Below are positions 4,661 to 59,200 of a stretch of 64,000 nt of DNA, in pieces (position 1 is the stretch's first letter; the number at the start of each line of letters is the position of its first letter). Under the pieces are notes generated by a model. That model was not told the DNA's origin and ran no database searches. It saw only the letters and a list, made by a program, of their open reading frames with translations. This DNA comes from a virus: IMG/VR virus record IMGVR_UViG_3300031963_009547; one strand, 5' to 3'. The position numbers were made by a program, and so were the translations under genes.

Positions 4661-5805
4661 TCGTTAATTATTGATACAATAGTTTGGATTTCATCAAAAG
4701 TCAATCCTTGATGGTTTGGTATGTAGAACCCAAACTTGTTTATTAATTCACAATTTTTTAATTCAACAGGTCCGTATTTTTTTACCCACATCGGTTTTTT
4801 AGACATGTCTCCAGCAATTAAAGGTCTAACCTCAATATTTTTTTCTAATAGTTTATTAACTATTTCATTTCTTCTTTCATTAATAATTGGGTATGCAAAG
4901 TTCGATACAAAATCACCTTTGTTTTCACCAACCATAATTTTATTATCACCAATTAGTGATTTATATTTTTTGAAATTTTCATTTCTTTTTTCACTATACC
5001 CGTCTAATTTATCAATTGCCATTAAACCAATAAATGCTTGTAAATCTGTTGCTCTTAAATTAAAACCCGGTAAATAAAAAGTATATAAAGAGTCAAACTC
5101 ATTTACATTATTTTCTTTTCTTAATTTTTCTTGTATGTGTGTAGGTAAATCCCTATCCCAACCGTGACTTCTCATCATTAATAATGAATAATAAAAATCC
5201 TCATCGTTTGTATTTATGAACCCACCTTCAATTGTGCTTAAGTGATGTCCAAAATACATCGAAAAAAATGATGCAAAACCAAAAGAACCTAAATACTTTC
5301 CTTGATATTTTGACCCCATACTTTCGCAAACATCTTCCAATAGAATTACATTGTATTTTTCACACAGTGAAATTACTTTTTCCATATTAGGAACTAAACC
5401 TAATGGTGAAACTAAAATCATACAAGATGGGTCATTTGTTTTAAACAACTCTTCTAAATGTTCTAAATCACAAGAAAGGTCTTCTAAGTTAGAGTCACAA
5501 AGTATTGGTTCCATACCTAATAACATTGGGGAACTAACATCGGTAGCCCAACTTAATCCAGGAACAACAACTTTGTTATTTTTTAATTTACCGGTGTGTA
5601 ATAATGATGCTAACGCTAAAATAATTGCTGACGACCCGGAATTAACATAGACAGAATATTTCGTACCTATTTTTTTAGCCCATTTTGATTCTAATTCCCA
5701 TGTTAAATCTCCTTTTGTAAGTCTTGGTATTTCATCTTGGTTTAACCATTCTATTAATTTATTGATGTCATTTTTATCAATTGTGTCTTTAACTAACTTT
5801 ATCAT
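4657..5805 (-). CDS. colD: GDP-4-keto-6-deoxymannose 3-dehydratase (ColD-type; DegT/DnrJ PLP fold)
   Basis: LEDVCESMG; FSMYFGHHLSTIEGG with His where aminotransferases have the Schiff-base Lys; RSHGWDRDLP; LPGFNLR; sits between gmd and an fcl-like gene. Confidence 0.8.
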   Translation of the reverse strand: MIKLVKDTIDKNDINKLIEWLNQDEIPRLTKGDLTWELESKWAKKIGTKYSVYVNSGSSAIILALASLLHTGKLKNNKVVVPGLSWATDVSSPMLLGMEPILCDSNLEDLSCDLEHLEELFKTNDPSCMILVSPLGLVPNMEKVISLCEKYNVILLEDVCESMGSKYQGKYLGSFGFASFFSMYFGHHLSTIEGGFINTNDEDFYYSLLMMRSHGWDRDLPTHIQEKLRKENNVNEFDSLYTFYLPGFNLRATDLQAFIGLMAIDKLDGYSEKRNENFKKYKSLIGDNKIMVGENKGDFVSNFAYPIINERRNEIVNKLLEKNIEVRPLIAGDMSKKPMWVKKYGPVELKNCELINKFGFYIPNHQGLTFDEIQTIVSIINE

Positions 5806-39031: not shown

Positions 39032-42000
39032 ATGGCATCATCAAATAAGGTTTTTGTTTCTCCTGGTGTGTACACATCGGAAAGAGACTTAACGTTTGTG
39101 GCTCAAAGTGTGGGTGTAACCACTTTAGGTGTTGTAGGTGAAACACTACAAGGACCGGCTTTTGAACCAATCTTTATAACAAATTTTGACGAGTTCCAAA
39201 CTTATTTTGGAGGAACAAGTCCTGAAAAATTTGTTAATACACAAATACCAAAATACGAATTGGCTTATATCTCTAAATCTTACCTATCACAATCAAACCA
39301 ACTATTTGTAACGAGAGTTTTAGGTTTATCAGGATATGATGCAGGTCCGTCATGGTCTATCGTAACCATTGGTAATGTTGACCCATCCACAATACAAGTA
39401 ACAGGAACAACTGGTCCTGTTGCAGTAACATTCACAGGAACAACTGGTGGAACTGTAACATACACATCAGTCCCATCGTCAATTAACGTAAATGGAAATT
39501 TTTATAACTCTTACACTGAGTTTAATGGAGCTACTTCTTCAATTGCTGAAGATTTAACAACTTATTTAACAAATCAAATGTATTTGTTTGCTACAAGTTC
39601 CTCAACATCAGGTAGTACTGCAATTTTGTGGGGTTCATCAAGTGCATCGACTTTGACAAGTACTACAGGTGTTACTTCATTGAATACTATTACAGGTTCT
39701 ACCGAAATGTTCGGAGTTCCAAATGTAAACCAAGCTTCTAATAATTTTTCAGCATCAACTAATGACCCATGGTATTATGGATTATTTAATTACTACCAAG
39801 GCTCAAATGATGTAAATACATATTTCGGACAAAGTATGGGTGCTGCACTTTCAGGTATTTCTACAACACCAACAACGGGTGTATATTCAGGAACTGTTGC
39901 ATTCTTTACTACATCTTATTCAGGAGCACCATATACAACTTATGATGATTTGGTTGTTGCAACATTAAGGTCAAGAGGTATTTCAACATATACTTCAACT
40001 AATGCTGGACCATTCTATGAAGTTACGGGAACTACAGATGTTGCTATGATTTGTACAGGTGCATACTCGGCGGTAACTAAAAATCCATATTCAACATTCC
40101 AAATTTCGGGTGTTACTTATGATGGTGATAACTTTAGTTTTGAAACATCGATGTTAAGTACAAACAAAAACTATTTAAGAAATGTATTTGGAGCATCTAA
40201 CTTTGGTAAAGCAAGAAATGAAGTTCCTTTATTTGTTGAAGAGACTTATTCGGCATTATTACAAACAGGTTATAGAGCAGGTCAAATTAGAGGTTTATAT
40301 TGTGACTTAGTTGAATTGCCAGGTGCAAGGTCAGGTAATGCTGATAGTATCGGTTTCTACTTAGAACAATACCAAACACCTGAGACACCTTTCTTAGTTT
40401 CTGAACTTCGTGGTAGTAAAGTTTTCAAATTATTTAAATTTGTTCTAATCTCTGATGGTAACTCTGCTAATACATACGTAAAATTATCTATTGGTAATAT
40501 TTCATTTAATAATGGAACATTCGATGTATTTGTAAGAGATTATTTTGACAATGACCAAAATGTTAGAGTATTAGAAAGTTTTACGAACTGTTCATTAGAC
40601 CCAACTAATAATAACTACGTAGCAAATAAAATTGGTACGTCAAACGGTGAATACCAAGTAAAATCTAAATATGTAATGTTAGAGATGAGTGATGAAGCTC
40701 CGATTGATGCATTACCTTGTGGTTTTGAAGGATATGTAATGAGAGAATATGCAAACGCAACACCACCATTTGTTCCTTACAAAACTAAATACTATTCAGC
40801 GGGTGAAACAATTTACAACCCACCTTTTGGTTCGACAAGTGGTGGAGACAACCCTGTTATATCAAGTGGGGAAAATCCAAGAAGAGCTTACTTAGGTATT
40901 TCTAATATTAGTGGTTTTGATTACGACTTCTTCCAATATAAAGGAAAACAATTACCAAACAGTTTGGCTACAGACACTACGGGACCAGCTTGGGGTTACT
41001 TAACTAAAGGGTTCCACATGGATAGTGGTGCAACAGTTGTGACTATCGCTAACTCATATGCAACTTCAGGTCAATCGGCATTTGAAGTGGGTGTTGGGTC
41101 ATTTAATTCTGAACCAGTTGATACCGATAATCCTTATTACAGATTAAACACACGTAAGTATACAGTAATGGCTTACGGAGGTTTTGATGGTTGGGACATT
41201 TATAGAGAATCAAGAACTAACACTGATACATTCGCATTAGGTCAAACAGGATTTAAATACGGGGCAGCAAGTTCAGTAACTTACCCTACCGCATCAGGAT
41301 GGGGAGCATTCAAACAAATTTCAGGACCTAACCAAGAAACTTGGGCGAATACTGACTACTACGCTTACAAATGGGGACAATCAACATTTGCAAATCCTGA
41401 ATCTACAAACATCAACGTGTTTGCAACACCGGGTATTGATTATGTTAATAACTCAAACTTAGTGGAAGAATCAATTGATATGATTGAAACAGATAGAGCA
41501 GATTCAATCTACATTACTACAACCCCTGACTTCAATATGTTCTTACCATCTTATCAAGATGTAACGGAAGGTTTGATTTACCCTCAGGAGGCGGTAGATA
41601 ATTTAGAGAACACAGGTATCGACTCTAACTATACTGCAACATATTACCCTTGGATTTTGACAAGAGATACTGTTAATAACACTCAAATCTATATTCCTGC
41701 AACTTCTGAGGTTGTAAGAAACTTAGCATTGACTGATAACATCGCATTCCCTTGGTTCGCATCAGCGGGTTACACAAGAGGTTTAGTAAACGCAATTAGA
41801 GCAAGACGTAAGTTAACACAAGACGATAGAGATACTTTATATAAAGGTAGAATCAACCCAATCGCTACTTTCTCTGATGTGGGCACTGTAATTTGGGGTA
41901 ACAAAACTCTTCAAATCAGAGAATCTGCACTTGACAGAATCAACGTAAGAAGATTGTTACTACAAGCTCGTAAATTGATTTCAGCAGTAGCCGTAAGATT

Positions 42001-42244
42001 ATTGTTCGAACAAAACGATAATAAAGTAAGACAAGACTTCTTGGATTCAGTTAACCCAATCTTAGACCAAATTAGAAGAGATAGAGGTTTGATTGACTTT
42101 AGAGTTCAAGTATCTAACACACCTGAAGATTTAGATTCAAATACATTAACAGGTAAAATCTTCTTGAAACCAACAAGAGCGTTAGAATACATTGACATCG
42201 AGTTTGTCATCACACCAACAGGAGCGTCTTTCGACGATATCTAA
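39032..42244 (+). CDS. contractile tail sheath protein
   Basis: FVSPGVYTSERDL N-terminus; FPWFASAGYTRG, LYKGRINPI, WGNKTLQ, LDRINVRRLL, PTRALEYIDIEF C-terminus. Confidence 0.96.
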   Translation: MASSNKVFVSPGVYTSERDLTFVAQSVGVTTLGVVGETLQGPAFEPIFITNFDEFQTYFGGTSPEKFVNTQIPKYELAYISKSYLSQSNQLFVTRVLGLSGYDAGPSWSIVTIGNVDPSTIQVTGTTGPVAVTFTGTTGGTVTYTSVPSSINVNGNFYNSYTEFNGATSSIAEDLTTYLTNQMYLFATSSSTSGSTAILWGSSSASTLTSTTGVTSLNTITGSTEMFGVPNVNQASNNFSASTNDPWYYGLFNYYQGSNDVNTYFGQSMGAALSGISTTPTTGVYSGTVAFFTTSYSGAPYTTYDDLVVATLRSRGISTYTSTNAGPFYEVTGTTDVAMICTGAYSAVTKNPYSTFQISGVTYDGDNFSFETSMLSTNKNYLRNVFGASNFGKARNEVPLFVEETYSALLQTGYRAGQIRGLYCDLVELPGARSGNADSIGFYLEQYQTPETPFLVSELRGSKVFKLFKFVLISDGNSANTYVKLSIGNISFNNGTFDVFVRDYFDNDQNVRVLESFTNCSLDPTNNNYVANKIGTSNGEYQVKSKYVMLEMSDEAPIDALPCGFEGYVMREYANATPPFVPYKTKYYSAGETIYNPPFGSTSGGDNPVISSGENPRRAYLGISNISGFDYDFFQYKGKQLPNSLATDTTGPAWGYLTKGFHMDSGATVVTIANSYATSGQSAFEVGVGSFNSEPVDTDNPYYRLNTRKYTVMAYGGFDGWDIYRESRTNTDTFALGQTGFKYGAASSVTYPTASGWGAFKQISGPNQETWANTDYYAYKWGQSTFANPESTNINVFATPGIDYVNNSNLVEESIDMIETDRADSIYITTTPDFNMFLPSYQDVTEGLIYPQEAVDNLENTGIDSNYTATYYPWILTRDTVNNTQIYIPATSEVVRNLALTDNIAFPWFASAGYTRGLVNAIRARRKLTQDDRDTLYKGRINPIATFSDVGTVIWGNKTLQIRESALDRINVRRLLLQARKLISAVAVRLLFEQNDNKVRQDFLDSVNPILDQIRRDRGLIDFRVQVSNTPEDLDSNTLTGKIFLKPTRALEYIDIEFVITPTGASFDDI

Positions 42245-43418: not shown

Positions 43419-43907
43419 ATGGCTGATTTGTTAATGAAAATGCCCTTTCAATATGAACCTAAAAGAAAAAATAGGTTTATTATAACGTTCCCCTCTTCTT
43501 TGGGGATTAACTCTTGGTATGTTGAAAGTTCTTCAAGACCAAAGGTGGAGATTAATCCAGTAGCTATCCCGTTTTTGAACACTGAAACTTATGTTGCAGG
43601 TAATTTTAAATGGGGAACAATAGACGTTACATTCCGTGACCCAATTGGTCCTTCAGCATCACAAGCTCTTATGGAGTGGGTTCGTTTACACGCTGAATCA
43701 GTAACAGGTCGTATGGGTTATGCTGCAGGTTACAAAAAAGACGTTGACCTTGAAATGTTAGACCCAACAGGTGTGGCAGTTGAAAAATGGATTTTACAAG
43801 GATGTTTTTTAACAAATGTTGACTTCGACACATTAGGATATAGTGAAGATGGTTTGATTACTGTAAAAGCAACATTAAGACCTGATAGATGTATCTTGGT
43901 ATACTAA
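43419..43907 (+). CDS. tail tube protein (T4 gp19-like)
   Basis: EPKRKNRF, YVAGNFKWGTIDVTFRDPI, LMEWV, LDPTG..EKWILQGCF. Confidence 0.9.
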   Translation: MADLLMKMPFQYEPKRKNRFIITFPSSLGINSWYVESSSRPKVEINPVAIPFLNTETYVAGNFKWGTIDVTFRDPIGPSASQALMEWVRLHAESVTGRMGYAAGYKKDVDLEMLDPTGVAVEKWILQGCFLTNVDFDTLGYSEDGLITVKATLRPDRCILVY

Positions 43908-43928: not shown

Positions 43929-43957
43929 AATCCCATCTATTTTAGGTGGGATTTTTT
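43929..43957 (+). terminator. intrinsic terminator after the tail tube gene
   Basis: AATCCCATCTA-TTT-TAGGTGGGATT-TTTT. Confidence 0.85.
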
Positions 43958-44000
43958 ATTTACATAAACTAAAGTCAAGTTATTTTTAAAGAAAAAAATT

Positions 44001-44759
44001 ATGGACCAAAGCACACAATACGGACAAATGGATTTCAACCTTCCACATGATATGGTAAAATTACCAAGTGGTGGACATACTTATAGACCAAAAAAAGAAT
44101 CTTTAAAAGTGGGGTATCTTACTGCTACGGATGAAAATATTTTAATGTCTCAAAATACACCAAAAGACGGGTTGATTATGACTCTACTTAAAAATAAAAT
44201 TTATGAGCCAGGTTTTGATGTGGGTCAATTATTAGAAGTTGATGTCCAAGCTATATTAATATTTTTAAGAAATACTGCCTTCGGACCTGAATATGATTAT
44301 CTTATAACTGACCCAAAAACGGACAATAAATTTGAAGTCAAACTTATTGTGGATGAGGTAAATTACATAAAACCTAAACATGAAATGGGTACAGATGGTT
44401 TGTTTAGCGTTGAGTTACCAAAATCAAAAAATAAAGTTAAATGTAAATTACTAAGTATAAAAGAAAGTAATGAAATTGAATCGATTAGTAATAATTACCC
44501 TTCAGGAATGATTGCACCAATAGTTACAAAAAAATTAGAGAGTCAGATAGTAGAACTAAACGGGTCAACGGATAAGGGTGAGATTGCAAAAATGATTTCA
44601 AACATGCCAATTGCCGACTCCAAATTTTTAAGAAGATTTTTATCTGAGTGTGAACCACAACTTGATTTAATAAAAACAGTTACAGCCCCGTCAGGAGAAA
44701 AAGTCAACGTAATGGTTGGTTTTGGGGTTGAATTTTTTCGCCCTTTCTTCACAATATAA
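44001..44759 (+). CDS. tail assembly chaperone/baseplate hub assembly protein (T4 gp26-like)
   Basis: VKLPSGG..Y, YLTATDENILMS, AILIFLRNTAFGPEY, MPIADSKFLR, ends FFRP; lies between tube and tape measure genes. Confidence 0.75.
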   Translation: MDQSTQYGQMDFNLPHDMVKLPSGGHTYRPKKESLKVGYLTATDENILMSQNTPKDGLIMTLLKNKIYEPGFDVGQLLEVDVQAILIFLRNTAFGPEYDYLITDPKTDNKFEVKLIVDEVNYIKPKHEMGTDGLFSVELPKSKNKVKCKLLSIKESNEIESISNNYPSGMIAPIVTKKLESQIVELNGSTDKGEIAKMISNMPIADSKFLRRFLSECEPQLDLIKTVTAPSGEKVNVMVGFGVEFFRPFFTI

Positions 44760-44892
44760 AAAAATTTTAATGGATGAATTTTATTATTTAATAAAATTTG
44801 CAAACTTTTCATACTTGGATTTACTTAAAATGCCAACATTCGAAAGAAAGTACTTTTTGGATAAGCTAATATCTGAATCAAATAAAACATAA
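44713..44892 (+). CDS. overlapping +1-frame ORF (gp51/GT-like chaperone extension); internal ATG at 44770
   Basis: +1 frame open 44713-44892: ..FFALSSQYKKILMDEFYYLIKFANFSYLDLLKMPTFERKYFLDKLISESNKT. Confidence 0.7.
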   Translation, partial: WLVLGLNFFALSSQYKKILMDEFYYLIKFANFSYLDLLKMPTFERKYFLDKLISESNKT

Positions 44893-44921: not shown

Positions 44922-46718
44922 ATGTTTTTTAATGACCCACAACTAGAAGGAGGTGCTGCCAAATCAATAGCCGAGCAAATTGAGGCCTTAAAGGGTGCTA
45001 TTAAAGCAAATATAGCAGCACTCAGTGCATCGGATGCATTTACAGCTTACAAAAATATAGAAAAAACCGCAATAAGTATTGCTGATAGTTCTAAGACCTT
45101 ACAAAGGTCTATGGGTGGTGTTGTTATGGACAGCTCTAAATTTGCGAGTAAATTAATTGAGTCATACAAAAACACCGTCAAAATAGGTGCCGAGTTTAAA
45201 GATATCACTGGAACAGTCCAAGGACTTGCTGAAAGTATGCAAAGAATGGTAGACCCTTCTTTGCAAACTATTGAAAATATGGTTGCTCTTTCACAGGCAA
45301 CAGGTATGGGTGCTGGTGAAGTTGGTAAAATGGTTGGTGAACTTACTAGATTTGGTGGAACACAGTTGCAAGCAACAGAAAAAATGCATGATTTAGCCGT
45401 TGAAGCTAGAAAAGTGGGGATTGATTCAAAAAAGTTTTTAACTGATGTCAACGCCAATATGAAATCATTAAATGGTTTTGGTTTCGGTAATAGTGTAAAA
45501 GGTTTAACTGACATGGTAAAACAAGCTACACTTTTAAGAACATCTATTGAAAAAATTGGTGCAAGTGCATTACAATCAAAAATATTAGACCCTGAAGGTG
45601 CTATGGAAACTGCAGCATCATTTCAAATGTTAGGTGGTGCTGTAGGTAAATTAGCGGACCCTTTTCAATTAATGAGAATGGCACAATCAGACATGAAAGG
45701 GTTGCAAGATGAAATTATAAAATCAAGTGCATCTGCCTTTAAATTTAATAGTGAAACAGGAAAATTTGATACTTCAGTTGCTGACATGTATAGATTAAGA
45801 GAACAAGCAGCGTTAATGGGTAAATCTTTGGATGAGGTAATGGAAGTTGGAAGAGAGGCTGCAAAGGCAAACTTTTTGAAAGATAGATTTGGTTTTGCGG
45901 ATTTGGATGAGGATGAATTGAATTTAGTAACGGGACTTACTGAAATTGGGCCTGACGGTAAAGTAACGATTGATATACCTGGTTATGGTGAAATTGAAGA
46001 AGCTAATTTAGGTAGTGCTGAAGCCCAACAAGCATTAAATGATTATATGCAGAAGGCTGGTAAAGACGAAAAAGATATTGCGATAAATAACTTAACTATT
46101 ACTGAAAATCAGGCAAAAGATGTAAACATTATTAAAAGTGCTATATTAACACAAATGGGTGTTCAAGATAGGGCTACTTTTTTGAAAAATATTGAAACCG
46201 CAAACGAAAAACTTGGTAAAGCCATAACAAACGGAGCTGAAACAACAGCAAATACTCTTGAAAAAACCGCTAGAGATACTGCGAAATTTGAAACAACCGC
46301 AGCAGGTGAATTACCAGACCCATTAATTTCTGAAAATGCAGTGAATAGAATGATGGATGTACAAGAGGAAGTAAAAAAAACTATCAAAAAACCAATTGAA
46401 CCGGTACCTACCGTTACCGGTAATGATATGTTATTTAAACCTGGAGGTGCCCCACAAATAATGGCTAAAGACACGATATATAAAGGAATAGTTGGTGATG
46501 AGGTTGCTTTCGGAACTAACTTAACAGACGCACTTAATAAAGGTGGTGGGAGTATTGGAGGTAATATAGATATTAACATTAATTTAAATGGGTCTATTGC
46601 TGGTGACCCAGGACAATTGAACAAAATGTTTAATTCTCCTGAAGTTCAAAAACAAATTATGGATACCGTACTTTATAAAATGAACGAATATAAAAGACAA
46701 CAAGGCGTATTATCCTAA
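44922..46718 (+). CDS. tape measure protein
   Basis: Ala/Gly/Met-rich, helical 598-aa protein directly after the chaperone genes. Confidence 0.75.
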   Translation: MFFNDPQLEGGAAKSIAEQIEALKGAIKANIAALSASDAFTAYKNIEKTAISIADSSKTLQRSMGGVVMDSSKFASKLIESYKNTVKIGAEFKDITGTVQGLAESMQRMVDPSLQTIENMVALSQATGMGAGEVGKMVGELTRFGGTQLQATEKMHDLAVEARKVGIDSKKFLTDVNANMKSLNGFGFGNSVKGLTDMVKQATLLRTSIEKIGASALQSKILDPEGAMETAASFQMLGGAVGKLADPFQLMRMAQSDMKGLQDEIIKSSASAFKFNSETGKFDTSVADMYRLREQAALMGKSLDEVMEVGREAAKANFLKDRFGFADLDEDELNLVTGLTEIGPDGKVTIDIPGYGEIEEANLGSAEAQQALNDYMQKAGKDEKDIAINNLTITENQAKDVNIIKSAILTQMGVQDRATFLKNIETANEKLGKAITNGAETTANTLEKTARDTAKFETTAAGELPDPLISENAVNRMMDVQEEVKKTIKKPIEPVPTVTGNDMLFKPGGAPQIMAKDTIYKGIVGDEVAFGTNLTDALNKGGGSIGGNIDININLNGSIAGDPGQLNKMFNSPEVQKQIMDTVLYKMNEYKRQQGVLS

Positions 46719-46756: not shown

Positions 46757-49700
46757 ATGGAGAGTCCACTATCATTTAATTCGAGCGAAAATTTTAGAAA
46801 AAAACTATTGGTGAGAAACCTTCCACCATACAAAGTAGATAGTGCTTTTTCAAATGACGGTAAACCAGGTTCTTCTGAATTTAATATTAATGACCTAACA
46901 CCCATTGACTCCCCAAGTGTTGAACAAATAGGTAACCAACAAGAACAAATTCTTTTACCTATAAATCAGTATGGTCCACAAACAAGTACTGGAGAATATG
47001 GAGACATCGTACCAATCAATATTAATTTAAATTATAAATCAAATGAAGGTGAATATGGATATCCTGACACTATAGAAAGTGATTTAGAGATTATTGGTAA
47101 CAATACTGAAAAACAAATTATAATAAAAAATGTTTATAGACCTGAAAATGGTTTATCAGACTTCGGCTCAACTGCTTGGTACATTAATAATGATAAAGTT
47201 ATTAATACTGTTGGTGAAGGTGAATATACGGTACAAGATACGATTGGTAGTAATTTAGAAACTACCGCAAATGCCGACCGACCTATTCTTATTACAAATA
47301 ATCAATACGGACCTGAAAACCCTTCTAATGTCGAAGTTTCGATTAATAATAATTTACAAACTAATGCTAACGAAGGTGAGTATGGTTTTCCTGATACTGT
47401 AGATAGTCCATTAGAAATAAAAGGAGAAACGGATAGACCTGCATTAATTGCTATAAATCAATATGGTCCTGAAAATTTACCAACAACCGAAGTATCAATA
47501 AATAATAACCTACAAACCAACTCAAATGAAGGTGAATATGGGTTTCCTGATACTGTAGATAGTGAATTACAAATTGTAGGTGAAGACGTTAGAAAACCTA
47601 ATTTCTTACAAAATCAATGGGGCCCTGAACAGGGACAAAGTGAAACTGAAGTTGAACCGTACAGAAAACAAAAAAATTTAGTAATACCACAAGGTAATTA
47701 CGACGTTACTGATTCGGATGGCTCTCTTTTAGAACTTGTTGGAGGAATTAAAGAAACTGAAGCATACCTATCAAACAGATATGCTACGGGTGATGGTGAA
47801 TATGACCCGACAGATTTCAAAACCCTTCAACAAGAGGCGTTACAGTTACCATATGCTAATTCAGATAATACGTTTATATTTTTACCATCTACCTACACAC
47901 CATATAGTATATTATTAAATGATGACCCATCGGGTTCTGATGGTAGTTTATCACAAGACTCTGACTTAGCAAATATTGGCGCAAAACAATTAAATAAAGA
48001 ATTTAAACATAGAGTTGCGCTTGAGTTATTTCAACAAACATTAGGACAAGTAAATATATTCAATTCTAATGTTAATCCCGATACTGGAGAAATATCTGCT
48101 CAACCAAATACCGACCCTTTCGATGCTATTGGTTTATTAACAGGTAATATTCCTATTGTATCGAGAGTTTATAATATTACAACTCCTGATTTTCTATTTG
48201 GTCAAGGTATTAACTTTGCCGCTAAATTAGGTGGTCTTTATTCACCCTATTCTTATATTCCTGGTGAGTATTTTGATTATCCTGAACGAATAGGTAATGG
48301 ACCTTTTGAAAACCCATTATCATTAATAGGTGGGGCTTTAGGTTCTTTATTTAGTGCTCTACAACCCGCAAATCAATCTTCATCTGAATTATTTGTTGAA
48401 TTTACATCAGTACCAACACGTAAATTACTTTATGACCAATTAAAATATAATCAGTACAGACCCGATTATAAAATAGGTAATAATTTACTCGCACCTAAAG
48501 GTGTGTTCTACCTTGGTGATAGAAAAAATCATTTGACAGAATTAATGTCCCCCGCACCCGAACTACCATATGCAAAAGATGGTAAAACCTCATCAATGGG
48601 ACCTGTGCTTTCTTACTCTAATATGGGTAAGTTATATGAAGGAGAACAATTAAATGAAACACAATTTGGTTTAAATAGTAGAAACTTATATAGTGCGGGA
48701 GCTAATAAAGATGGTGTTAAATGGATTGGTGCTGGTATCTTCGGTGGCGTAACTTGGATTGGTAGTAAGAGTCCGAAAGAGGATAACAAACCACTACAAG
48801 GTAAATTACAAGGTAGAGGTGGAGAGCAATTCGAAGACAATAGTGAATTTACTTTTGGTAATTTAGTAGGTTTTGATTCAACTAAGTCTACTAATTTAGA
48901 TTTCACACCAGGTTCTTTATTAGATGTAACACAAAAACTTGTAGATGCAGGGCAACGAAGTTCACAACCTTTAGAACATGTTGGAACCGCAATTAACCAA
49001 GTATCAAAAGTATTTAACGACGGATATCAAGAATTAACAAAAGGTTCAAGAGTTGTAAGATATACAACCCAAAACTCTAAACCTGATAGTAGCGCAACAC
49101 CAACAGGTCTTGAGTATTGTAGAGTATTCACAAAAGACAGACCATACTACACTTATGACGAGTTACAAAAAACAGATGGTAATATAAGAGGTTATACTAA
49201 TTCAGTATTAGACAACACTTACAATTTAAATATTGCACCAACTGACGGATATAGTATAAAAGATGGTAAAGTAAAAAAATACATGCTATCTTTAGAAAAC
49301 TTGGCATGGAGAACATCAAATAAAAAGGGTTTTACTTATGATGATTTACCGGCTTGTGAAAAGGGACCAAATGGAGGTAGAATTATGTGGTTCCCACCAT
49401 ATGATTTAAGTTTTGATGAAAGTGTTAGTACACAATGGACTGACAACAATTTTTTAGGTAGAACTGAACCGATTTATACTTACACTAACACATCAAGAAA
49501 GGGTAACGTTTCTTTTAAAATTATTGTTGACCATCCATCAATCCTTAATGTATTAGTTGATAAAGAATTAGAAAATGTTGGAAACAATGGAGAAATAACA
49601 CAAATTATTGATTCATTCTTTGCGGGATGTACTAAGTACGATTTATGGGACTTAGTTAGTAAATTCCCAATGTTTACTCCTAATGATATTTTTGAAACTC

Positions 49701-52700
49701 AAATATTAACTACGGAAGATGTTGTCACTGTAGTACAAGAAAACAGTTATTCTATACCTGAACAAGAAATTGATATTGATAGTGAAATAGAACCTACACC
49801 TACACCATCACCATGTGTTGTTTTAAAATACCAAATTGGTGTTACCACCGATTTAACGTATACGGGTTGTTCAGGAGATGTAATAACACTAACAGGTTTA
49901 GCACCAAACGCGAGTGGAGAAATATGTGCAATAAGAAGTAATGCTTATAATTACTCAACACCTGACCCTACAAATACTATAACACCAACAGGACAAAATT
50001 GTGTTCAAACAACACCTGGACCAACTCCAGGACCAACACCTACACCAACACCTACAGCAACCGAACCACCATTAAATATTCAATTTCCGGATATTGGTTT
50101 TTATTTTGATAACAACTTTCCTGACGGAACAGGAAATAGATACGGTACCACTGTTACTCAAGATTTTGAACATTGGTACGATTTATATATTGCTTCAAAA
50201 AACAATTATTTAAATGATGGAAAACCTGATACCTATAGTGCTGCTTTGAATAAAATATTTTCATACGATGATAGTACTAAAGCAGATAAAACTAGTTTCA
50301 TTTTAGGACTTGATGATAGTAATGCGGCTAAAATAGAATATCTAAGGAATTATGTAGATACAAGAAAAGAGGAAATAGGTATTTTTTTCGATTATATAAC
50401 TAAAGAATTTAATGAAGCCAAAAGTTTCATACCAAAACTAGGTAAAATATTAGATGACGGGGGAACCGTTGAATTTGATTTAGAGGCTAGTGCATCCGCT
50501 GTTACCGACCCTGAATATAATCTAAATTTATCTAAAAGAAGAAATGATGCAGTTTTGAAGTGGATATTAAAACAAAAGTCACCAAATCAAACAACTTTAC
50601 AAAATTATAACCAACAAGGTAAATTGAAAATTAATCAAACGTCCGTTGGGGAAAGTCCCACACTGGAAGACAAACCATATAGATTTGTTGTATGTTCTAA
50701 AGGTTTTAAATCATCGAAACAAGAAGGTGTTGTGTCAATAAACGCAATGGCTTGTCGTAGAACTAAAATTAGTAATATCAAACCTATATATAACCAATCA
50801 CAAAACGAAAACCAATCACAAAATTCAACTGTTCCATTAACTAATGGTGGTGATTCGTCACAAACTGGTCAAGAATTATCAGGTCAAGATTTCTTAGTGA
50901 TTGCACCGAATCCACAACCCGGTGTTGATGGTGGTGTACCACAACCAAATGACACAACTAACCCTTTTGTTACCCAAGACCCAATTTCACAACCTTATAC
51001 AAATACACCAAATACGAGACAACAAGACGTACAAACACAAACACTACAAAAAAGAAAAGATTTAACAAAAAGATTAGCAAGAAAACTTTTAACTGAATGT
51101 AATTATTTTGAATACATCAAACAAAATGAACCAATGGTTTATGATGGTATTAAATCAAAAATAAAATACTTCCAACCTGCATTCCATTCAATAACGCCAG
51201 AAGGACTTAATGCTAGATTAGTGTTCTTACAACAATGTATGAGACCTGGAGACACGATACCTACTGTATCTCAGTCAGATAGCGGTCAACAAACATTATT
51301 ATTTAATGATGCGACGAACAGTGCTTTTGGTGCACCTCCAGTTTGTATTTTAAGAATAGGTGATTTTTTCCATACAAAAATTGTTATTGACCAAATAACT
51401 TTTAAATATGATGATGGTAGATTTGATTTAAATCCTGAAGGTATCGGAGTTCAACCAATGATTGCAACTGTGAATGTATCATTCAATTTTATAGGTGCTC
51501 ATGGTTTGGCAGGTCCTGTCGCTCAATTACAAAATGCATTATCATTTAACTATTATGCTAATACTGAAATGTATGACGAAAGAGCCGAATCAACAGAACA
51601 ACTTAATTTAGAAGTTTATGATGCTCAAATACTTTCACAAGTAAAAGATGACTTAAATGTTGTCAATACGGAAGCACCAAGACCGGTAGTTAATGACGGA
51701 GGAGTTACGATTGGGACAATAATAACTAATACAATTGATTTAAACACATCTATTACTTCAGGTACCATCAAGTATAAAGATGTAATGAGTGGGTTGGCAA
51801 ATTTAACAAAAGAATATACTGAAAAAACACTTTCTACTTTAGAAAAAATAAATGAAAATTATTTGATTGGTGGACTACAGGTGTTCACAAAAGATAGAAA
51901 ATATATAGAAGGTAATTTTAATTATTTAGGTGGAAATATAACAAATACTGCAAACATATTTGGGTACTCTTATGACGTTCAAACTAAAATTGAAAGTATT
52001 GCAACTAAAGCGAAGGAAGATGTTGATAATGGAGACGTTTGTCCACTTCTTTCAGGATTAGCAAATCAAAACTTATCAAACGTTCAAGTGAGAAAAGTTA
52101 AAAAAGAATTAAAAAATCAAATAGATGCTAAAAAAGAACAAATGTTGAATGATTTAGAAAATTATGCAAATGAAATTAATAATATACAATACCCATTAAT
52201 AAGTTCAATTGACAAAATAAATTATGTTTCAGATGCCCATGATGGGTTCATAAAGAAAAATAATTCAGTAGTTATCTATAATCTTTCAGGAACAACACAG
52301 ATAACACAACCAACCCTATCTGGTGTGAACAATACATTACAAGAACTTGTTGAAGATTCTTATTTGGTGAAAAATAACATAAATGATTTTTATCAAAAGT
52401 TACAAGATTTCAGTTTAATACCAACAGGTGAGGATGTATACAGAGACGATTTTACTCAAAATACTTATATATCCAATCAAAACTTTTTACCACAAGAAAC
52501 TGTATTCTTTATTTTATTTGGTAAAGACATAATAGATGATTCTGATAAGTTTGCAATAGATTTGATAGATAAAGCAATACCAAATTTAAATCAAGATGAT
52601 GAAATTGCTTGGTTGAAATTCTTAGATGAAAATCTAAATCAACCGAATACAGGACTTAGAGATTCATACAAAGCTTCTAAAACTGTTGTCGATAAAAAAA

Positions 52701-52894
52701 TTGCAGATTTCAGAACAACGTATTTTAATTCTACATTTACAAATTATAAACCCTATAATTTAGATAAAGAAAGAATAATGTGGTATGAATCCCAAGTAAC
52801 AGCACAAGCACCTTATACTGATAATTTATCTGCAATTTACTCGTCAACAAATGCGACGTGGGACAAATTTAATTTACAAAAAAGTTTTCAATAA
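46757..52894 (+). CDS. giant baseplate protein (tube-initiator gp48/54-like domain, OmpA-like insert, N-terminal 52-aa repeats)
   Basis: IMWFPPYDLSFDE..FLGRTEPIYTY..SFKIIVDHP and PPVCILRIGDFF; ASAS..YNLNLSKRRNDAV..CRRTKI. Confidence 0.65.
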   Translation: MESPLSFNSSENFRKKLLVRNLPPYKVDSAFSNDGKPGSSEFNINDLTPIDSPSVEQIGNQQEQILLPINQYGPQTSTGEYGDIVPININLNYKSNEGEYGYPDTIESDLEIIGNNTEKQIIIKNVYRPENGLSDFGSTAWYINNDKVINTVGEGEYTVQDTIGSNLETTANADRPILITNNQYGPENPSNVEVSINNNLQTNANEGEYGFPDTVDSPLEIKGETDRPALIAINQYGPENLPTTEVSINNNLQTNSNEGEYGFPDTVDSELQIVGEDVRKPNFLQNQWGPEQGQSETEVEPYRKQKNLVIPQGNYDVTDSDGSLLELVGGIKETEAYLSNRYATGDGEYDPTDFKTLQQEALQLPYANSDNTFIFLPSTYTPYSILLNDDPSGSDGSLSQDSDLANIGAKQLNKEFKHRVALELFQQTLGQVNIFNSNVNPDTGEISAQPNTDPFDAIGLLTGNIPIVSRVYNITTPDFLFGQGINFAAKLGGLYSPYSYIPGEYFDYPERIGNGPFENPLSLIGGALGSLFSALQPANQSSSELFVEFTSVPTRKLLYDQLKYNQYRPDYKIGNNLLAPKGVFYLGDRKNHLTELMSPAPELPYAKDGKTSSMGPVLSYSNMGKLYEGEQLNETQFGLNSRNLYSAGANKDGVKWIGAGIFGGVTWIGSKSPKEDNKPLQGKLQGRGGEQFEDNSEFTFGNLVGFDSTKSTNLDFTPGSLLDVTQKLVDAGQRSSQPLEHVGTAINQVSKVFNDGYQELTKGSRVVRYTTQNSKPDSSATPTGLEYCRVFTKDRPYYTYDELQKTDGNIRGYTNSVLDNTYNLNIAPTDGYSIKDGKVKKYMLSLENLAWRTSNKKGFTYDDLPACEKGPNGGRIMWFPPYDLSFDESVSTQWTDNNFLGRTEPIYTYTNTSRKGNVSFKIIVDHPSILNVLVDKELENVGNNGEITQIIDSFFAGCTKYDLWDLVSKFPMFTPNDIFETQILTTEDVVTVVQENSYSIPEQEIDIDSEIEPTPTPSPCVVLKYQIGVTTDLTYTGCSGDVITLTGLAPNASGEICAIRSNAYNYSTPDPTNTITPTGQNCVQTTPGPTPGPTPTPTPTATEPPLNIQFPDIGFYFDNNFPDGTGNRYGTTVTQDFEHWYDLYIASKNNYLNDGKPDTYSAALNKIFSYDDSTKADKTSFILGLDDSNAAKIEYLRNYVDTRKEEIGIFFDYITKEFNEAKSFIPKLGKILDDGGTVEFDLEASASAVTDPEYNLNLSKRRNDAVLKWILKQKSPNQTTLQNYNQQGKLKINQTSVGESPTLEDKPYRFVVCSKGFKSSKQEGVVSINAMACRRTKISNIKPIYNQSQNENQSQNSTVPLTNGGDSSQTGQELSGQDFLVIAPNPQPGVDGGVPQPNDTTNPFVTQDPISQPYTNTPNTRQQDVQTQTLQKRKDLTKRLARKLLTECNYFEYIKQNEPMVYDGIKSKIKYFQPAFHSITPEGLNARLVFLQQCMRPGDTIPTVSQSDSGQQTLLFNDATNSAFGAPPVCILRIGDFFHTKIVIDQITFKYDDGRFDLNPEGIGVQPMIATVNVSFNFIGAHGLAGPVAQLQNALSFNYYANTEMYDERAESTEQLNLEVYDAQILSQVKDDLNVVNTEAPRPVVNDGGVTIGTIITNTIDLNTSITSGTIKYKDVMSGLANLTKEYTEKTLSTLEKINENYLIGGLQVFTKDRKYIEGNFNYLGGNITNTANIFGYSYDVQTKIESIATKAKEDVDNGDVCPLLSGLANQNLSNVQVRKVKKELKNQIDAKKEQMLNDLENYANEINNIQYPLISSIDKINYVSDAHDGFIKKNNSVVIYNLSGTTQITQPTLSGVNNTLQELVEDSYLVKNNINDFYQKLQDFSLIPTGEDVYRDDFTQNTYISNQNFLPQETVFFILFGKDIIDDSDKFAIDLIDKAIPNLNQDDEIAWLKFLDENLNQPNTGLRDSYKASKTVVDKKIADFRTTYFNSTFTNYKPYNLDKERIMWYESQVTAQAPYTDNLSAIYSSTNATWDKFNLQKSFQ
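46965..47810 (+). repeat. degenerate 156-bp (52-aa) tandem coding repeats
   Basis: NQYGPE/NQWGPE units start at 47300, 47456, 47612; NEGEYG(F/Y)PDT recurs; looser copies flank these. Confidence 0.85.
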
Positions 52895-53211
52895 TGGATT
52901 ACTACAATAGATATAAAGATTTTTTGATTAACGGACAACAAACTGTTGTTCCGTTTTTATCTATACCTGGTAGAGTTACAGACCAGCAATATTTGTATAG
53001 ACAAGGAAGAAGTAGGTTAGATAAAATAAGTTTTGAAAAATATGGAACACCATATTTTGGTTGGTTAATATTGGCAGCAAATTCTTTATATGGTGGACTT
53101 GAACAAAACATACCTGATGGTACAATATTAATTATTCCTTTTCCATTAACTGCGGCATTACAAGATTATAAAGCTGCTTTAGATACTCACATATTCTATT
53201 ATGGCCGTTAG
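52894..53211 (+). CDS. baseplate wedge LysM/gp53-like protein
   Basis: SRLDKISFEKYGTPYFGWLILAAN..IPDGTILIIP. Confidence 0.75.
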   Translation: MDYYNRYKDFLINGQQTVVPFLSIPGRVTDQQYLYRQGRSRLDKISFEKYGTPYFGWLILAANSLYGGLEQNIPDGTILIIPFPLTAALQDYKAALDTHIFYYGR

Positions 53212-56200
53212 ATTAAAACAAAATAAAAAAATCTTTATTGAGACCGATTATGATAACATTGTTGTTGTTAACCCAAACGAAGTTTTTTCTCCCGACGGTA
53301 CAAAACAAGAACGCCTTGTTGACCATGAAGATTTAGTTTATTATGCCAATTTAGAAACATTTATAATCCCAAGAACTAAGTTAGCTATTGGTGATAATTT
53401 TGACTCACCGGTTATTAATACAACAAGTATCGCAACAATGTTTGCGGGTGACGACGCGTTGAAAATTAATTTCATGAAACCAAAAGGTAAGACACAATTT
53501 GATACAAGTTGGTCAGACCAATTGACGGGAGAAGGCACAAGAACTTTCAACGGAGCTAATCAATCAAGTGAAAGAGTTGTGAACTTTGAAGGTAGACAAT
53601 CTTTTAAACGTTCCGTTTCCAACCCTGAAGATACACAATTATTAGGTATAAAAGAAATAAGAGTTAATATTAAGGGAACGGGTGTTCCTGAAGTAAATAT
53701 ACAATTAGTCGATATACAAGGAAGGTCTTTATTTGAACAAGGAGAAAATTCATTATATTCTGCATTTTTTAATTTTCCTTATCCATTATTTTATTTGACG
53801 TTGAAAGGTTATTATGGTAAAGCTGTCAAATATAGATTATCATTAATGTCATTCAACGCAAGTTTTGATGCGGACACAGGTAATTATAATATTTCACTCA
53901 AACTAATTGGTAAATTCACTGCACTTCTTTTTGATACGCCTTTATCTTACGCGGTAAACGCACCAAAAATGTATAATACCCAAATTACCGTAACACAAGC
54001 AAGCACAGGTAATAAGAACGTCTTCAATACATATAAGGGTAGACAAAAATTAGAAGAGGTTTACAAAACCTATATGAGAAAAGGTTTAATACCTGACAAC
54101 TTTCCGATGCTCTCGATAGAGGATTTTGTTTTGAGAGTGGAAAACTTTGAATCTAAATTGAAAAAAAATTTAGAAACTCAGGCAGATTTTACTAAGTTAA
54201 ACGATTTGAAGTTGTTTGCGGATACTTTGATTAATTTAAGAAAAAAAGTTTATGATTATTCTATTAATAATTTTCTTGATAGAACAAGTTTTTATGTTGT
54301 CGGTGAAGAAATATATTACCCTTTCAAAAAAGAAGTTGCGTTACAGTCTAGAGAAGATTACAAAACATTTATAGACAAAAATATAATTGATTATACAAAA
54401 CAATTGAAAGACAATGCAACTTTTGGTGAAAAAGGAGAAACAAAAGACCAAATTACTATTTTAACTAAAAATAAAAAAGATGTAATAAAAAAATTAGATT
54501 TTAATGCTTGGCAAAACAATAGGGCCGATGTGTTAAATACATACTTATCAAGGTATAGTAGAAATTTAGAAGCAGAAAATCCTGATGAATATAAAAAATT
54601 TATTGAAAACGAAGCAAGAAATGCTCAACTTACAACACAAGTAAGAGATGAAAAAGGCCAAATCATAAATGACACGCCTGATTATTTTGTTTTTGGGAAC
54701 AAAATTGTTGCTGACGGCATATACGTCAAAAATTCTTATTTAGATAAGATTGACGAAATGCAAAAAAGTTTAGAGGCAAAACAAAAAGTTATTGAGGATA
54801 CGTTAACAAAATATTATGCAAGTTTACAATTAAAAAACCCAAGTGAAGGTGGATTAGGATTTAAACCAACGATTAGAAACATTTTTGCGATAATAATTGC
54901 AGGTGCCGATGCTTTTTATAGATTGATGGAAGATAACCATGAAGAAGCATGGAATGTAAGAACTGATAAGGACAGGTTATTAGCGGTAATACCAGCAGAA
55001 AAAAACTTTTCAGTTGATGCTGTGAAAAGTATACAAAAGTCAAGTACGGAATTAAATGATGATAATGTTGTATATCCTTGGCCTTTATATTTTACATTAG
55101 AAAAACAAGAAAATGGTAGTGATTTATATACAATACAATATCCTGGAGACGCGAAGTACATAAGACAGACAAAGGCTTATGATTATAGAGTTTGGCCCGA
55201 AGTTGGTTTTGTTGAGGCATACATAAAGGCTTCATTAGAAAAAGAAAAACCAACTTCTAATTACTCATATGACAACCCAACAGATGTAACTAAATATGTT
55301 TCTTGTAATGCTTTAGAGTTCCCATTCAAAACAGCACCATATCAAGATTTGAATGCTATTAAAACATTTTATGAAATATTTGAAAGAAGTTATATTAGTT
55401 CTCACTATGGAAACTTACCACTTGATTTATCACAAAAAAAACAGATAGATAAATTTTATGGAGATATTGAAAGTTCTAATATAGGTTTAGTTGCTCCTGA
55501 GGATATTACAATCAATCAAAATTTAAAGAATTTAAAATTCAATTCATTAGACAAATTGATTGATTATATGAAAACAATATCAAACAATGGTAAAGGACAA
55601 AGCTGGCAAACGTACATACGAGATATATTCAACACAGAATATATTAAAAACTTACTACAAAACGTCAATGAAATTTATTCAATCGACACATTATCCGATA
55701 GGTCTGTGAAAGTTTCTGCTGACCTACCATTGGCAACCAATATGAAAGAATTTTTAGAGGATAGTGGGACATCCAAAAAAAATACGTTAGATACGTATCC
55801 ATTTACTGATTTAACATGGTTACAAGAAAATATGGCAAACGGAAGTAATATAGGTGCGTTTGAAGATTATAATAATACCACAAGAAGTTACATTTATTTA
55901 GATGATAAAAAGACTATCGCTAGAATTAATGAAACTGAAAAATACCCTAATTTAAAATTATTCACAAATAACACGGTATTTCAAAGTAACACACAAGCAT
56001 ATTTAACAGAAGTAGGGTCAACTGAAAAAATCAATTCAAGATTATCTCTTAAAAACTTTTTTGAAACAAGACAAGACAAAGATTTATATTTAACTGAATC
56101 ATATATTAACTATGGAACAAGTTATAGTGGAAATATCGGAACTTTTATTCAAACAACATCATTATTAAACACACCATATTTTGTTAATGCTCTCATCGAT

Positions 56201-59200
56201 GGGGTGACAAAACAAAAAAATAATCAAGAAAACCCATTTGTAGGTTTAGGTTATTTGTATTTGAACTCATTACCACTGATAACAACCAAAGAAAAAATAA
56301 AAGACATAACAGATAATGTATTAACGGATTTAGATTATTTAGCTGCAACATTTAATAAATTTTCAGCAATACATCAAGTACCTTATGCTTGGGTATTAAA
56401 GTACGGTTCAATATGGCATAGATATAAAAAATACATAGAAGATAATGTAGATATATTAGACGATTGTTGGAAAAATTTTGATTTTAATGTTGCTTATGCG
56501 CCAACAACAGGTGATAGTACAACCACATACACAATATTAGACTATAGTGGTAATCCTCAAAATATCACACTACAAGGTGCTCAATTTTATCAAAATCCAC
56601 AAAACTCATTCATATTAAGAAATACGTTCGATGTTGGGTTTTACCCTAAAGTTGTAAATTCATTAGAATATTATTTGAATGAAGAAGATTTATTAACGGG
56701 TTATACAACAAGTGATTTTGCGGATGTATATAATAAAGGTTTGAAAATTGGTTTCAATAGTGAGTCTACCACAATGTATGGTACAGGATTTGACCCAAAT
56801 AATGGATTCAGAGAGTTCTTAAAGAAAAACTATTTTACATATAGATTAATTGAAAACACTGCGGTTCAGTCGCAACCAGACACAATAAGACTATACCCAT
56901 CAATGGGAGGTATACCATTCGACCAATCAATTTTTGAATGTTTCAATCAAACGAATAAAATTACCGAAGAAATATATAACAACTCCTCAGTTTTCAACGG
57001 TACTGTTAGGTCATTATGGGGTATTTCTAATTTTGGATATTATAACAACGATTTAATTAAAAAACCATTACCGACCGAATATCTTAAAGTTATTAAAAAT
57101 AATGCACCACTTCAAAACGATTTTAATATTGTTAGTAATGATTTAACTTACTCAAAAATAGACGAAATATTCAATTTGTTTGATGTTGATTTATTGGATA
57201 AAATGGAAGAAAAGTTTTTAACTTTCTGTAATTTTAAACCATTGGCGAGTGAATTAAAATTGAATGAGGAAAATATTACACCTAATTATATAGACACTAA
57301 CGGTTTAACAAATTCAGACGTTAAATTATTACGATATCAGATTAAAAACATTTTTGATTTTGATAGTAGTTTATTTAATAGTGTGAATCAAAACGAAGAT
57401 GGAATAGAATTAGGAAAATTACAAATTTCAAATTTATATACATCATTAAATAAATTTTTAAATTTTGATTGCGTATTAAAAATTGCAAACCCAACAAACT
57501 TTGATAGAAAATTATTTGATTCATTTAGTACTATTTCAAACTTACAAGTACAAGACAAGTATAAATTTGAACCTTATGTGAAAGGTACGTTACCCGGTGA
57601 CGGAACAGCAACTACTTTATTACAAAGTATAACTCAAAACCCTTCTGCTTGGGATGCGTTCAGAAAATATTTAGGATATACTACAATACCTGGGTTAGAG
57701 TTTCAAACACAAGTACAACCGGTGTTACCATCCGTACCTATCGCACAAAATAATCCACCTACACCATATACACCACCCGTTGCGGGACAAAATTATAGAA
57801 CGTTCCAAGATTTATGTAGTGGTACGTATTTTAATATAATTGACCCAAATGATAACACAAGCACAACATCATTTAATTACTATAATAATGACGTATGGTT
57901 CTTAGAGGTTGTTGATAACACATCACAAACAAAAAAATTCTGTGCAAGAAAGGTACCTGATAGTGCGACAACAACCACATATAATTTGGAGAATGATGAC
58001 AATTACCCACAGACAAATGCGGTAGGAACAACACCGGCAAGTTACTGTATGTCATTTTATCAAACACAATTAAATTGCCAACAATCACCTTTACTAGACC
58101 CAATACAATTACAATTTATTGGAGATTCGGCAACAATATTACCTGACGTACCTGGTGATGGTGATTATATTAACATTGAAAAAACAGACGGTACATATCA
58201 GGTGTTTAGAATTATAGGTGACCCTAATTTTGATGCTAACAAGATTGAAAATATAAGATTTTATCCACCGGGAACCGACCCAATAAACCCACCAATCGGT
58301 ACTAGTATATATCGTGAAGGGTTTGGGGGTGTTGACACAAACTACGCGAGAGTATTTAGAGTTGATAATAATGTAGGTGGTAATTATGTTATGACGGTAG
58401 AATACACCCCTAATTCCCCAAATGAAATTATATTATCTGCGAATGTTTCAACCCTACCTGGTTTACAAAACACAATACCACAACAAACAACAGTACCCCA
58501 ACAGGCACAACCATTACAAAATACACAAAAATCTTTCTTAACTGATTTCTTCATTGATAATTCAATTGCATTTAATGAACAAAATATTATTACTTTATAT
58601 CCATTAGTAAGACTTTATGGTGAACAAAAAAGACTTGACCCTACTTATGACAAAACTAAATTCACGACATATATAAATAATTTTTTAGAGGATAGAAGAA
58701 GTTTACAGGACAAAATGGTTACAGAAACTTTTTCCAACCTAAATAAAATTTTAAATAATATTGATGTAACGGTTGATTTACCTACTACTGCGCTTAACGG
58801 TGACACTACAAAATTAGCTTTATATAATACATTGAAAGGATTTAACGATAAATGGATTGCTGGCTCTGATTTAAAAAACAATACTTTGTTTGAGGACTTT
58901 TTATTTATGGATAGGGCAAATAGTGATTTAGGTAATTCATTTGTATTAGACGTACAAAAAGTTGTAAATGCGTTAGACCTTAAGTCAAAACAAGACCAAA
59001 GTTTAATGAGTGTAATAAGTAGAATTTTGGAAGAAAATTATTTTATTTTTATGGCAATGCCTGCTTATATTAATTTTTATGGTATACAAAGAGCGGTAAA
59101 AGATGGTCAACCATTGAAAGATGTTGAAATTGGTAATTCATTATTTGGTACGTATTTAGAAGTTGACTATACAAACTCAAGTCCCAAATTTTTGTGTTTA

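Follow-up and report, generated by a model that had tools for sequence, protein, structure and literature searches.

A conserved frameshift in the tail-assembly-chaperone genes of long-tailed phages was reportedly described by Xu, Hendrix and Duda in 2004. The G-T tail-chaperone frameshift is considered to be conserved "except T4" (Atkins et al. 2016, PMC5009743), and T4 gp26 and gp51 are listed as hub assembly chaperones (Leiman et al. 2010, Table 2, PMC3004832). In influenza virus a +1 shift occurs at UCC_UUU_CGU, and UUU_Ynn sequences are prone to +1 shifting in bacteria, as in Yersinia YopN-TyeA (PMC5009743). In constructs, −1 shifting is attenuated, and +1 shifting can be stimulated, by a stem-loop located 4 nt upstream of the site (PMC5009743). 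A literature search found no paper linking gp26, gp51, or "baseplate hub" to a frameshift, either +1 or −1.

The DNA analyzed here comes from a large freshwater phage and is referred to as the window, a stretch of 64,000 nt whose chaperone locus lies at positions 44001-44892. Comparison with related loci points to a programmed +1 ribosomal frameshift at the 3' end of this gp26/gp51-family chaperone gene (probability about 0.8). The one gene very probably makes both a short protein of 252 aa and a long protein of 296 aa.

The chaperone gene, its family, and its neighborhood

The features of the locus and its surroundings are listed below.

39032-42244: tail sheath gene, upstream of the chaperone gene (family search)
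43419-43907, plus strand: tail tube gene, T4 gp19-like (phrog_4542 tail tube protein, E 6e-28), adjoining the chaperone gene
43929-43962, plus strand: terminator-like hairpin with T-tail between the tube and chaperone genes (consensus scan, one site: 11-pair stem followed by TTTTATTT)
44001-44759, plus strand: zero-frame ORF of 252 aa, the putative short form, assigned to the gp26/gp51-family hub/tail assembly chaperones (PF12322, phrog_150, fold)
44683-44730, plus strand: 5' stem-loop ending 2 nt before the U-run (outer helix 44683-90/44723-30; inner helix approximately 44700-08/44714-23)
44733-44741, plus strand: putative shift site UUU_UUU_CGC (candidate P-site codon 44736-38, A-site CGC 44739-41, post-slip UUC 44737-39)
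44740-44892, plus strand: +1-frame extension of 50 codons plus stop, a conserved peptide and the predicted C-terminal domain of the 296-aa long form
44770-44772, plus strand: internal +1-frame ATG, a possible, non-conserved start of a 40-aa peptide (ATG in 12/45 close relatives)
44922-46718, plus strand: 598-aa gene, presumed tape measure (position and size)

The zero-frame ORF ends in GAA (44730) TTT TTT CGC CCT TTC TTC ACA ATA TAA (44757-59). In the +1 frame, a stop at 44710-12 is followed by an open stretch from 44713 to 44892, with an ATG at 44770. Re-reading of the window confirmed this description of the ORF end and of the open +1 frame, which had been given in the initial annotation. 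The fusion had been estimated there at about 296 aa, compared with 252 aa for the ORF, and this was also correct, since a product of 296 aa (P0124) results when TTTC at 44736-39 is read in one step.

The gene had been placed at the tube-chaperone-tape measure position. The tube gene was indeed found upstream; it also gave a weak match to PF06841, under the Pfam cut-off. On the other side, the 598-aa gene is presumed to be the tape measure from its position and size. It had no match in Pfam, PHROGs, or NCBIfam and no significant similarity to T4 gp29. Two giant ORFs follow it, at 46757-52894 (2045 aa) and 53201-60490 (2429 aa); neither matched Pfam, and either could be the true tape measure, a hub protein, or a fibre protein. 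The terminator-like hairpin at 43929-43962 could reduce the expression of the chaperone gene and the downstream genes relative to that of the tube gene. No tRNA genes were found within the window, and blastn of the chaperone region against known phages gave no match.

The 252-aa ORF matched PF12322 (T4_baseplate) with 30.4 bits (cut-off, 24.5), residues 20-243 corresponding to positions 8-214 of the 219 in the profile, and phrog_150 (baseplate hub) with an E value of 7e-11. T4 gp26 and T4 gp51 both match the same model, PF12322 ("hub assembly chaperones"). A fold model of the short form, built with 40 homologues in the alignment, had a pLDDT of 85. In BFVD it matched models annotated as baseplate hub subunit, hub assembly chaperone, or Gp26 of many myoviruses, with E values down to 1.5e-15, indicating that the predicted fold is the same as that of the annotated gp26/hub assembly chaperone models.

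When residues 129-226 were compared by VIA-align with 48,161 solved chains, the best three were YqbN (3klu; Z 6.1, rmsd 3.2, 83 aligned), which we take to be a tail assembly chaperone, 3fgx (Z 5.8, rmsd 3.9, 88 aligned), and HK97 gp10, a tail assembly chaperone (2ob9; Z 5.7, rmsd 3.2, 79 aligned); these scores exceed those of unrelated chains (Z ≤3.7) yet stay under the caution line of Z 8. Foldseek of the short form against the PDB found 2ob9 at a probability of 0.57 and no match at E ≤0.001. The original designation as a tail assembly chaperone is to be refined: on its profile matches, the gene is assigned to the T4 gp26/gp51 family of hub assembly chaperones (PF12322) and not to the classical gpG family, although its C-terminal half appears to resemble the solved tail assembly chaperones.

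The extension, modeled alone, was predicted to be a three-helix mini-domain (pLDDT 93), for which the VIA-align matches were all of a generic helix-loop-helix kind (Z ≤5.9). An alignment of 31 extensions matched a seven-member gp51 alignment at the C-terminal tail, the correct place, with an E value of 1.5e-4; against T4 gp51 alone, the E value was 0.017. T4 gp26 ends three residues past the shared EFF motif, and gp51 continues from the equivalent point with a tail of about 48 aa. Since gp26 stops there and the gp51 tail matches the +1 extension, T4 too has a short and a long form.

Proposed shift site and direction, and the 5' stem-loop

A scan of viral contigs gave 80 loci with 47-67% protein identity, of which 45 were distinct around the site. 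A single-protein search of viral contigs with P0140 gave no match, and a profile (A2) was therefore needed for the distant loci; its scan gave 80 further loci, 74 of them distinct. Together with five loci sampled singly, these metagenome-derived relatives make up a set of 124 distinct +1 loci.

The in-frame TTTTTTCG and the +1 ORF were kept in 45/45 distinct close loci, where TTTTTTCG was invariant and the +1 frame opens 5 to 21 codons before the U-run and runs for about 52 codons. The alignment check suggested with the initial annotation supported its reading: the slip site was kept in 45/45 close loci, and +1 coding precedes the position of the ATG. In the distant set, the extension HMM matched the +1 frame in 74/74 distinct loci. 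The singly sampled LR756508 (AAC TTT CTA), Mel-JY01 (TTT TTT TGG), L084, and L086 agreed on +1. The +1 arrangement was what every locus reached by searches from the window showed (124/124), the conserved extension of about 50 aa being in the +1 frame and the overlap containing an in-frame UUU with U or C as the next base. The sequence at this place was TTT_CGN in 66 loci, TTT_TGG in 41, TTT_CTT in 9, and of other types in 8. The zero-frame stop in the relatives lies 6 to 8 codons after the first UUU, and in a whole-library search nearly all of the best 150 of 1,439 family representatives stop 2 to 8 residues past the FF motif. Judged from this conservation, the arrangement is far beyond chance.

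In one lake metagenome, contig depth within window positions 44705-44791 was about tenfold higher over a 36-nt core (44715-44750), at which many contigs with unlike flanks were found. The unlike flanks and the rise in depth indicate that many co-occurring relatives carry a near-identical core.

The codon in the candidate A site, CGC, is used less than any other sense codon that occurs in the window (7/20,127 codons) and accounts for 1.1% of the Arg codons, compared with 72% for AGA, which agrees with the earlier impression of a rare codon in an AGA-biased genome. Among the approximately 20,000 codons, CGG is absent. This site is the window's sole in-frame TTT_CGN, although about four occurrences would be expected from codon frequencies. 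The site thus has the makeup of the UUU_CGN type: UUU is in frame, the next base is C, and the A site holds a rare CGN codon.

On the U6 run of the window, tRNA-Phe could re-pair at +1, −1, or −2. After 12 codons the −1 frame meets a stop, and it contains nothing conserved. A −2 shift would reach the same frame as +1: tRNA-Phe on the second UUU would move back two bases onto UUU, UUC and GCC would then be read, and the product would be 297 aa long, with one extra Phe. We regard this shift as unlikely. It would have the benefit of perfect UUU-to-UUU re-pairing on the U6 or U7 runs present in 109/124 loci, but the other 15 loci, with U-runs of just 3 to 5, retain the frame offset. In those loci only +1 re-pairing (UUU to UUC or UUU) is possible, and the broken U-runs therefore favor +1. 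Examples are LR756508 and L162, the latter having TTC TTT CGC where its close relative L161 has TTT TTT CGC. Loci such as L085 (3790-3830), L139, L140, L150, L154, and L157 end in GTT TTC YTC AAT and have the extension in the +1 frame. There is no good +1 re-pairing at the homologous place in these loci, which fit either a −2 slip from UUC to UUU at GTT TTC YTC or a shift at the in-frame TTT_CTT located nine codons upstream in the open +1 frame.

The claim of a +1 shift at UUU_CGN was accordingly upheld by the 66 loci with TTT_CGN and by the U3-U5 relatives, with the reservation that −2 on U6 leads to the same frame. A P-site slip from 44736-38 to 44737-39 is favored because of the U3-U5 relatives, the rarity of CGC, the lack of any other in-frame TTT_CGN in the window, and the precedent in the review (Atkins et al.). 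A "hungry codon" cannot be the full explanation, since the A-site codon in the UUU_UGG clades is not one that is biased against.

Other kinds of signal were considered and rejected. For a +1 shift of the prfB (RF2) type, the A site would have to hold a stop rather than the sense codon CGC, and a Shine-Dalgarno-like element would be expected about 3 nt before the P-site codon, whereas the sole AGGAG (44693-97) is 39 nt upstream. This distance also speaks against a Shine-Dalgarno-type stimulator, as does the conserved GGGG, 5 to 8 nt from the candidate P-site codons. The start sites at 44001 and 44922 have A/T-rich leaders without Shine-Dalgarno-like motifs. A canonical −1 shift at X_XXY_YYZ, which usually goes with a 3' stem-loop or pseudoknot, was rejected on the HMM result and the early closure of the −1 frame given above, and on the absence of excess structure 3' of the site.

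Synonymous positions upstream of the site are unusually fixed at GCC CCG (−48 to −43), GGA GAA (−39 to −34), and TTT GGG (−12 to −7). In the alignment of the close relatives (A1, 45 loci), 93% of the cells of the stem-loop at 44683-44730 were paired, versus 37 to 57% when the partners were slid. Its covariation was 0.31, versus ≤0.125 when slid, and 0/500 shuffles reached this value. Four pairs of the inner helix were changed on both sides, three of them joining two third-codon positions, and neither arm of the outer helix showed variation. In distant UUU_CGN loci the outer CCCC/GGGG helix is retained, and the inner helices that it encloses differ widely in sequence. Across the 66 UUU_CGN loci, the mean MFE of the 52 nt before the site was −15.9 kcal/mol (z −2.5), versus −3.8 to −6.2 kcal/mol (z about 0) for control windows within the same genes, and the 52 nt after the site had no excess structure (z −0.5). 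In the UUU_UGG clade, RNAalifold found no consensus structure and the upstream stability was that of the base composition (z −0.6); the hairpin is therefore claimed for the UUU_CGN clade only.

The covariation of the inner helix and the analogy with synthetic constructs make it plausible that the hairpin acts as a forward stimulator and a backward blocker. The position of the outer 3' arm, which would sit inside the ribosome when the slip happens, counts against such a role. A 5' hairpin without 3' structure is the opposite of the usage in backward shifts (PMC5009743), which argues further against −2. We consider it possible, at somewhat less than even odds, that the stem-loop is a natural direction switch: its refolding at the mRNA exit would make the U6 shift go +1 and would block the backward slip, the family using TTTTTTC in two phasings, +1 with the hairpin here and −1 without it in a sister clade.

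A further complementarity was seen near the site. The invariant AGGAGAA (44692-44698) is complementary to the invariant UUUCUUC (44745-44751), which would give an alternative fold enclosing the U-run, and the UUU_UGG clade has a similar purine-rich GGRGG and a CUUUCUUCC, both upstream. Neither side varies, so covariation has no bearing on this pairing.

Signs of coding in both frames and the proposed mechanism

The +1 peptide is conserved directly after the U-run in 45/45 close loci and, in all clades, from the second residue on. Following CGN, the sequence CCT TTC TTC shows little or no variation over its nine bases. C, G, or T is found at the third position of CGN, which is unconstrained in frame 0 and forms the middle of the first +1 codon. 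Selection on both RPFF (frame 0) and x-L-S-S (+1 frame) would be expected to produce this pattern, which also puts the switch at CGN or immediately before it. A change here in L072 is silent in +1 and not in frame 0.

It is very unlikely that no recoding takes place and that the extension is a separate small gene, starting from the ATG at 44770 (40 aa) or from a non-canonical start in relatives. Separate initiation of the 40-aa peptide could occur in this phage, because the ATG follows an A-rich stretch. The GenBank record of Microcystis phage Mel-JY01 (L081; PP395634) has AAC TTT TTT TGG and the extension in +1 at 4740-4976, and lists the extension as an independent CDS that begins at a TTG within the chaperone gene and so overlaps it. 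However, the ATG is absent in the remaining 33/45 close relatives, which have Leu or Tyr codons at this position and a first ATG that falls within the conserved domain. An ATG occurs in the first 13 codons past the slip in only 24/124 loci, 83/124 have no usable ATG for the extension, and 12/124 have no ATG, GTG, or TTG. Protein conservation also covers the 12 codons that precede the ATG position, beginning precisely at the slip site. In every locus the +1 frame runs through the U-run without a stop, and T4 gp51 has a homologous tail fused to the same domain. The initial annotation had held that a downstream ORF conserved only from its own ATG, with loss of the slippery site and frame offset, would speak against a frameshift. 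The relatives showed the reverse, as the +1 peptide is conserved right after the U-run, most loci lack an ATG, and both the site and the offset are kept. The Mel-JY01 record itself probably misses a frameshift.

Least likely of all is transcriptional slippage, in which the polymerase would drop one U in T6 and a minority of mRNAs would encode an in-frame fusion, for although a homopolymeric T-run is present and the T9 of the −1 sister clade is long enough for it, T6 is short, relatives with T3 to T5 keep the arrangement, and neither the 5' RNA hairpin nor the CGN, UGG, or CUN that comes after UUU would play a part in it. The one RNA-library contig of a relative across the 36-nt core is ungapped, and the DNA run showed no length heterogeneity, though contigs would hide rare variants. 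Two contigs from another RNA library lie inside ORF1, and the RNA contigs as a whole have no bearing on expression or slippage.

In the +1 frameshift proposed here, most ribosomes would read UUU UUU CGC and terminate six codons further on, giving the 252-aa short form. Some ribosomes would instead stall while peptidyl-tRNA-Phe occupies the second UUU (44736-38), since no sense codon in use by the phage is rarer than the CGC then in the A site. The tRNA-Phe would then re-pair one base forward, from UUU to UUC (44737-39), and GCC at 44740 would be decoded next, resulting in a 296-aa long form that carries the three-helix C-terminal domain. The stem-loop probably refolds behind the paused ribosome, where it would favor the forward slip and disfavor −1 on U6. 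By analogy with lambda gpG/gpGT and T4 gp26/gp51, both forms may function as non-virion chaperones in the assembly of the hub, tape measure, and tube.

Comparison with known frameshift systems

As in lambda gpG/gpGT, a short and a long chaperone would be made from one gene, adjacent to the tube gene, through a low-level shift near the 3' end, and the overlap, slip site, and extension are conserved, here in 124 distinct loci. Unlike in lambda, the predicted shift is +1 and not −1, the site is UUU_CGN and not X_XXY_YYZ, the RNA element is 5' and not 3', and the protein belongs to PF12322.

The proposed event, in which tRNA-Phe re-pairs from UUU to UUC while the A site holds a CGN that is decoded slowly, is shared with the UUU_CGN sites of influenza A PA-X and amalgaviruses. 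Those shifts and that of YopN-TyeA are found in eukaryotic viruses or in a bacterial secretion gene, unlike the one proposed here. PA-X has no known stimulator (PMC5009743), whereas the window site has a conserved 5' hairpin, and the relatives of the window also use UUU_UGG and UUU_CUN, unlike PA-X and the amalgaviruses.

The −1 sister clade (L087 and L168-L176) has GAT TTT TTT TTC CC (T9; L087:3520-3550) and the extension in the −1 frame in 10/10 loci, with no hairpin abutting the T-run in these 10 loci. It has the protein family, the FF position, the kind of extension, and the heptanucleotide TTTTTTC in common with the window. In contrast to this clade, the window has its U-run phased TTT_TTT_C, the extension one base forward, and the RNA structure 5' of the site. 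The T9 of the sister clade is long enough for polymerase slippage to be a real alternative to a ribosomal −1 shift in that clade.

The new elements are the +1 form, the breadth of its occurrence, and the 5' hairpin. The loci provide a large natural set of putative +1 sites (UUU_CGN, UUU_UGG, and UUU_CUN) with a covarying 5' hairpin, and together with the −1 branch the family offers a comparative system for what sets the direction and efficiency of a shift. If the stem-loop is a direction switch, these loci would form the first natural class of +1 frameshifting stimulated by a 5' hairpin. The extension is split or given a wrong start by gene callers, as in Mel-JY01, and many genomes of large phages may therefore contain a wrongly annotated small ORF.

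The closest comparison is with T4 gp26 (208 aa) and gp51 (249 aa), which share PF12322 with the window ORF and likewise form a short/long pair. The T4 forms are encoded by two diverged and divergently transcribed genes (26 and 51) without a frameshift, whereas here they would come from one gene. This locus and its 123 relatives indicate that the gp26/gp51 family uses the same short-form/long-form logic, though reviews call T4 the exception, and this logic suggests a concrete role for the poorly understood gp26 and gp51 of T4. If the direction switch holds, T4-like phages would have a G/GT system of their own, which T4 has resolved into genes 26 and 51.
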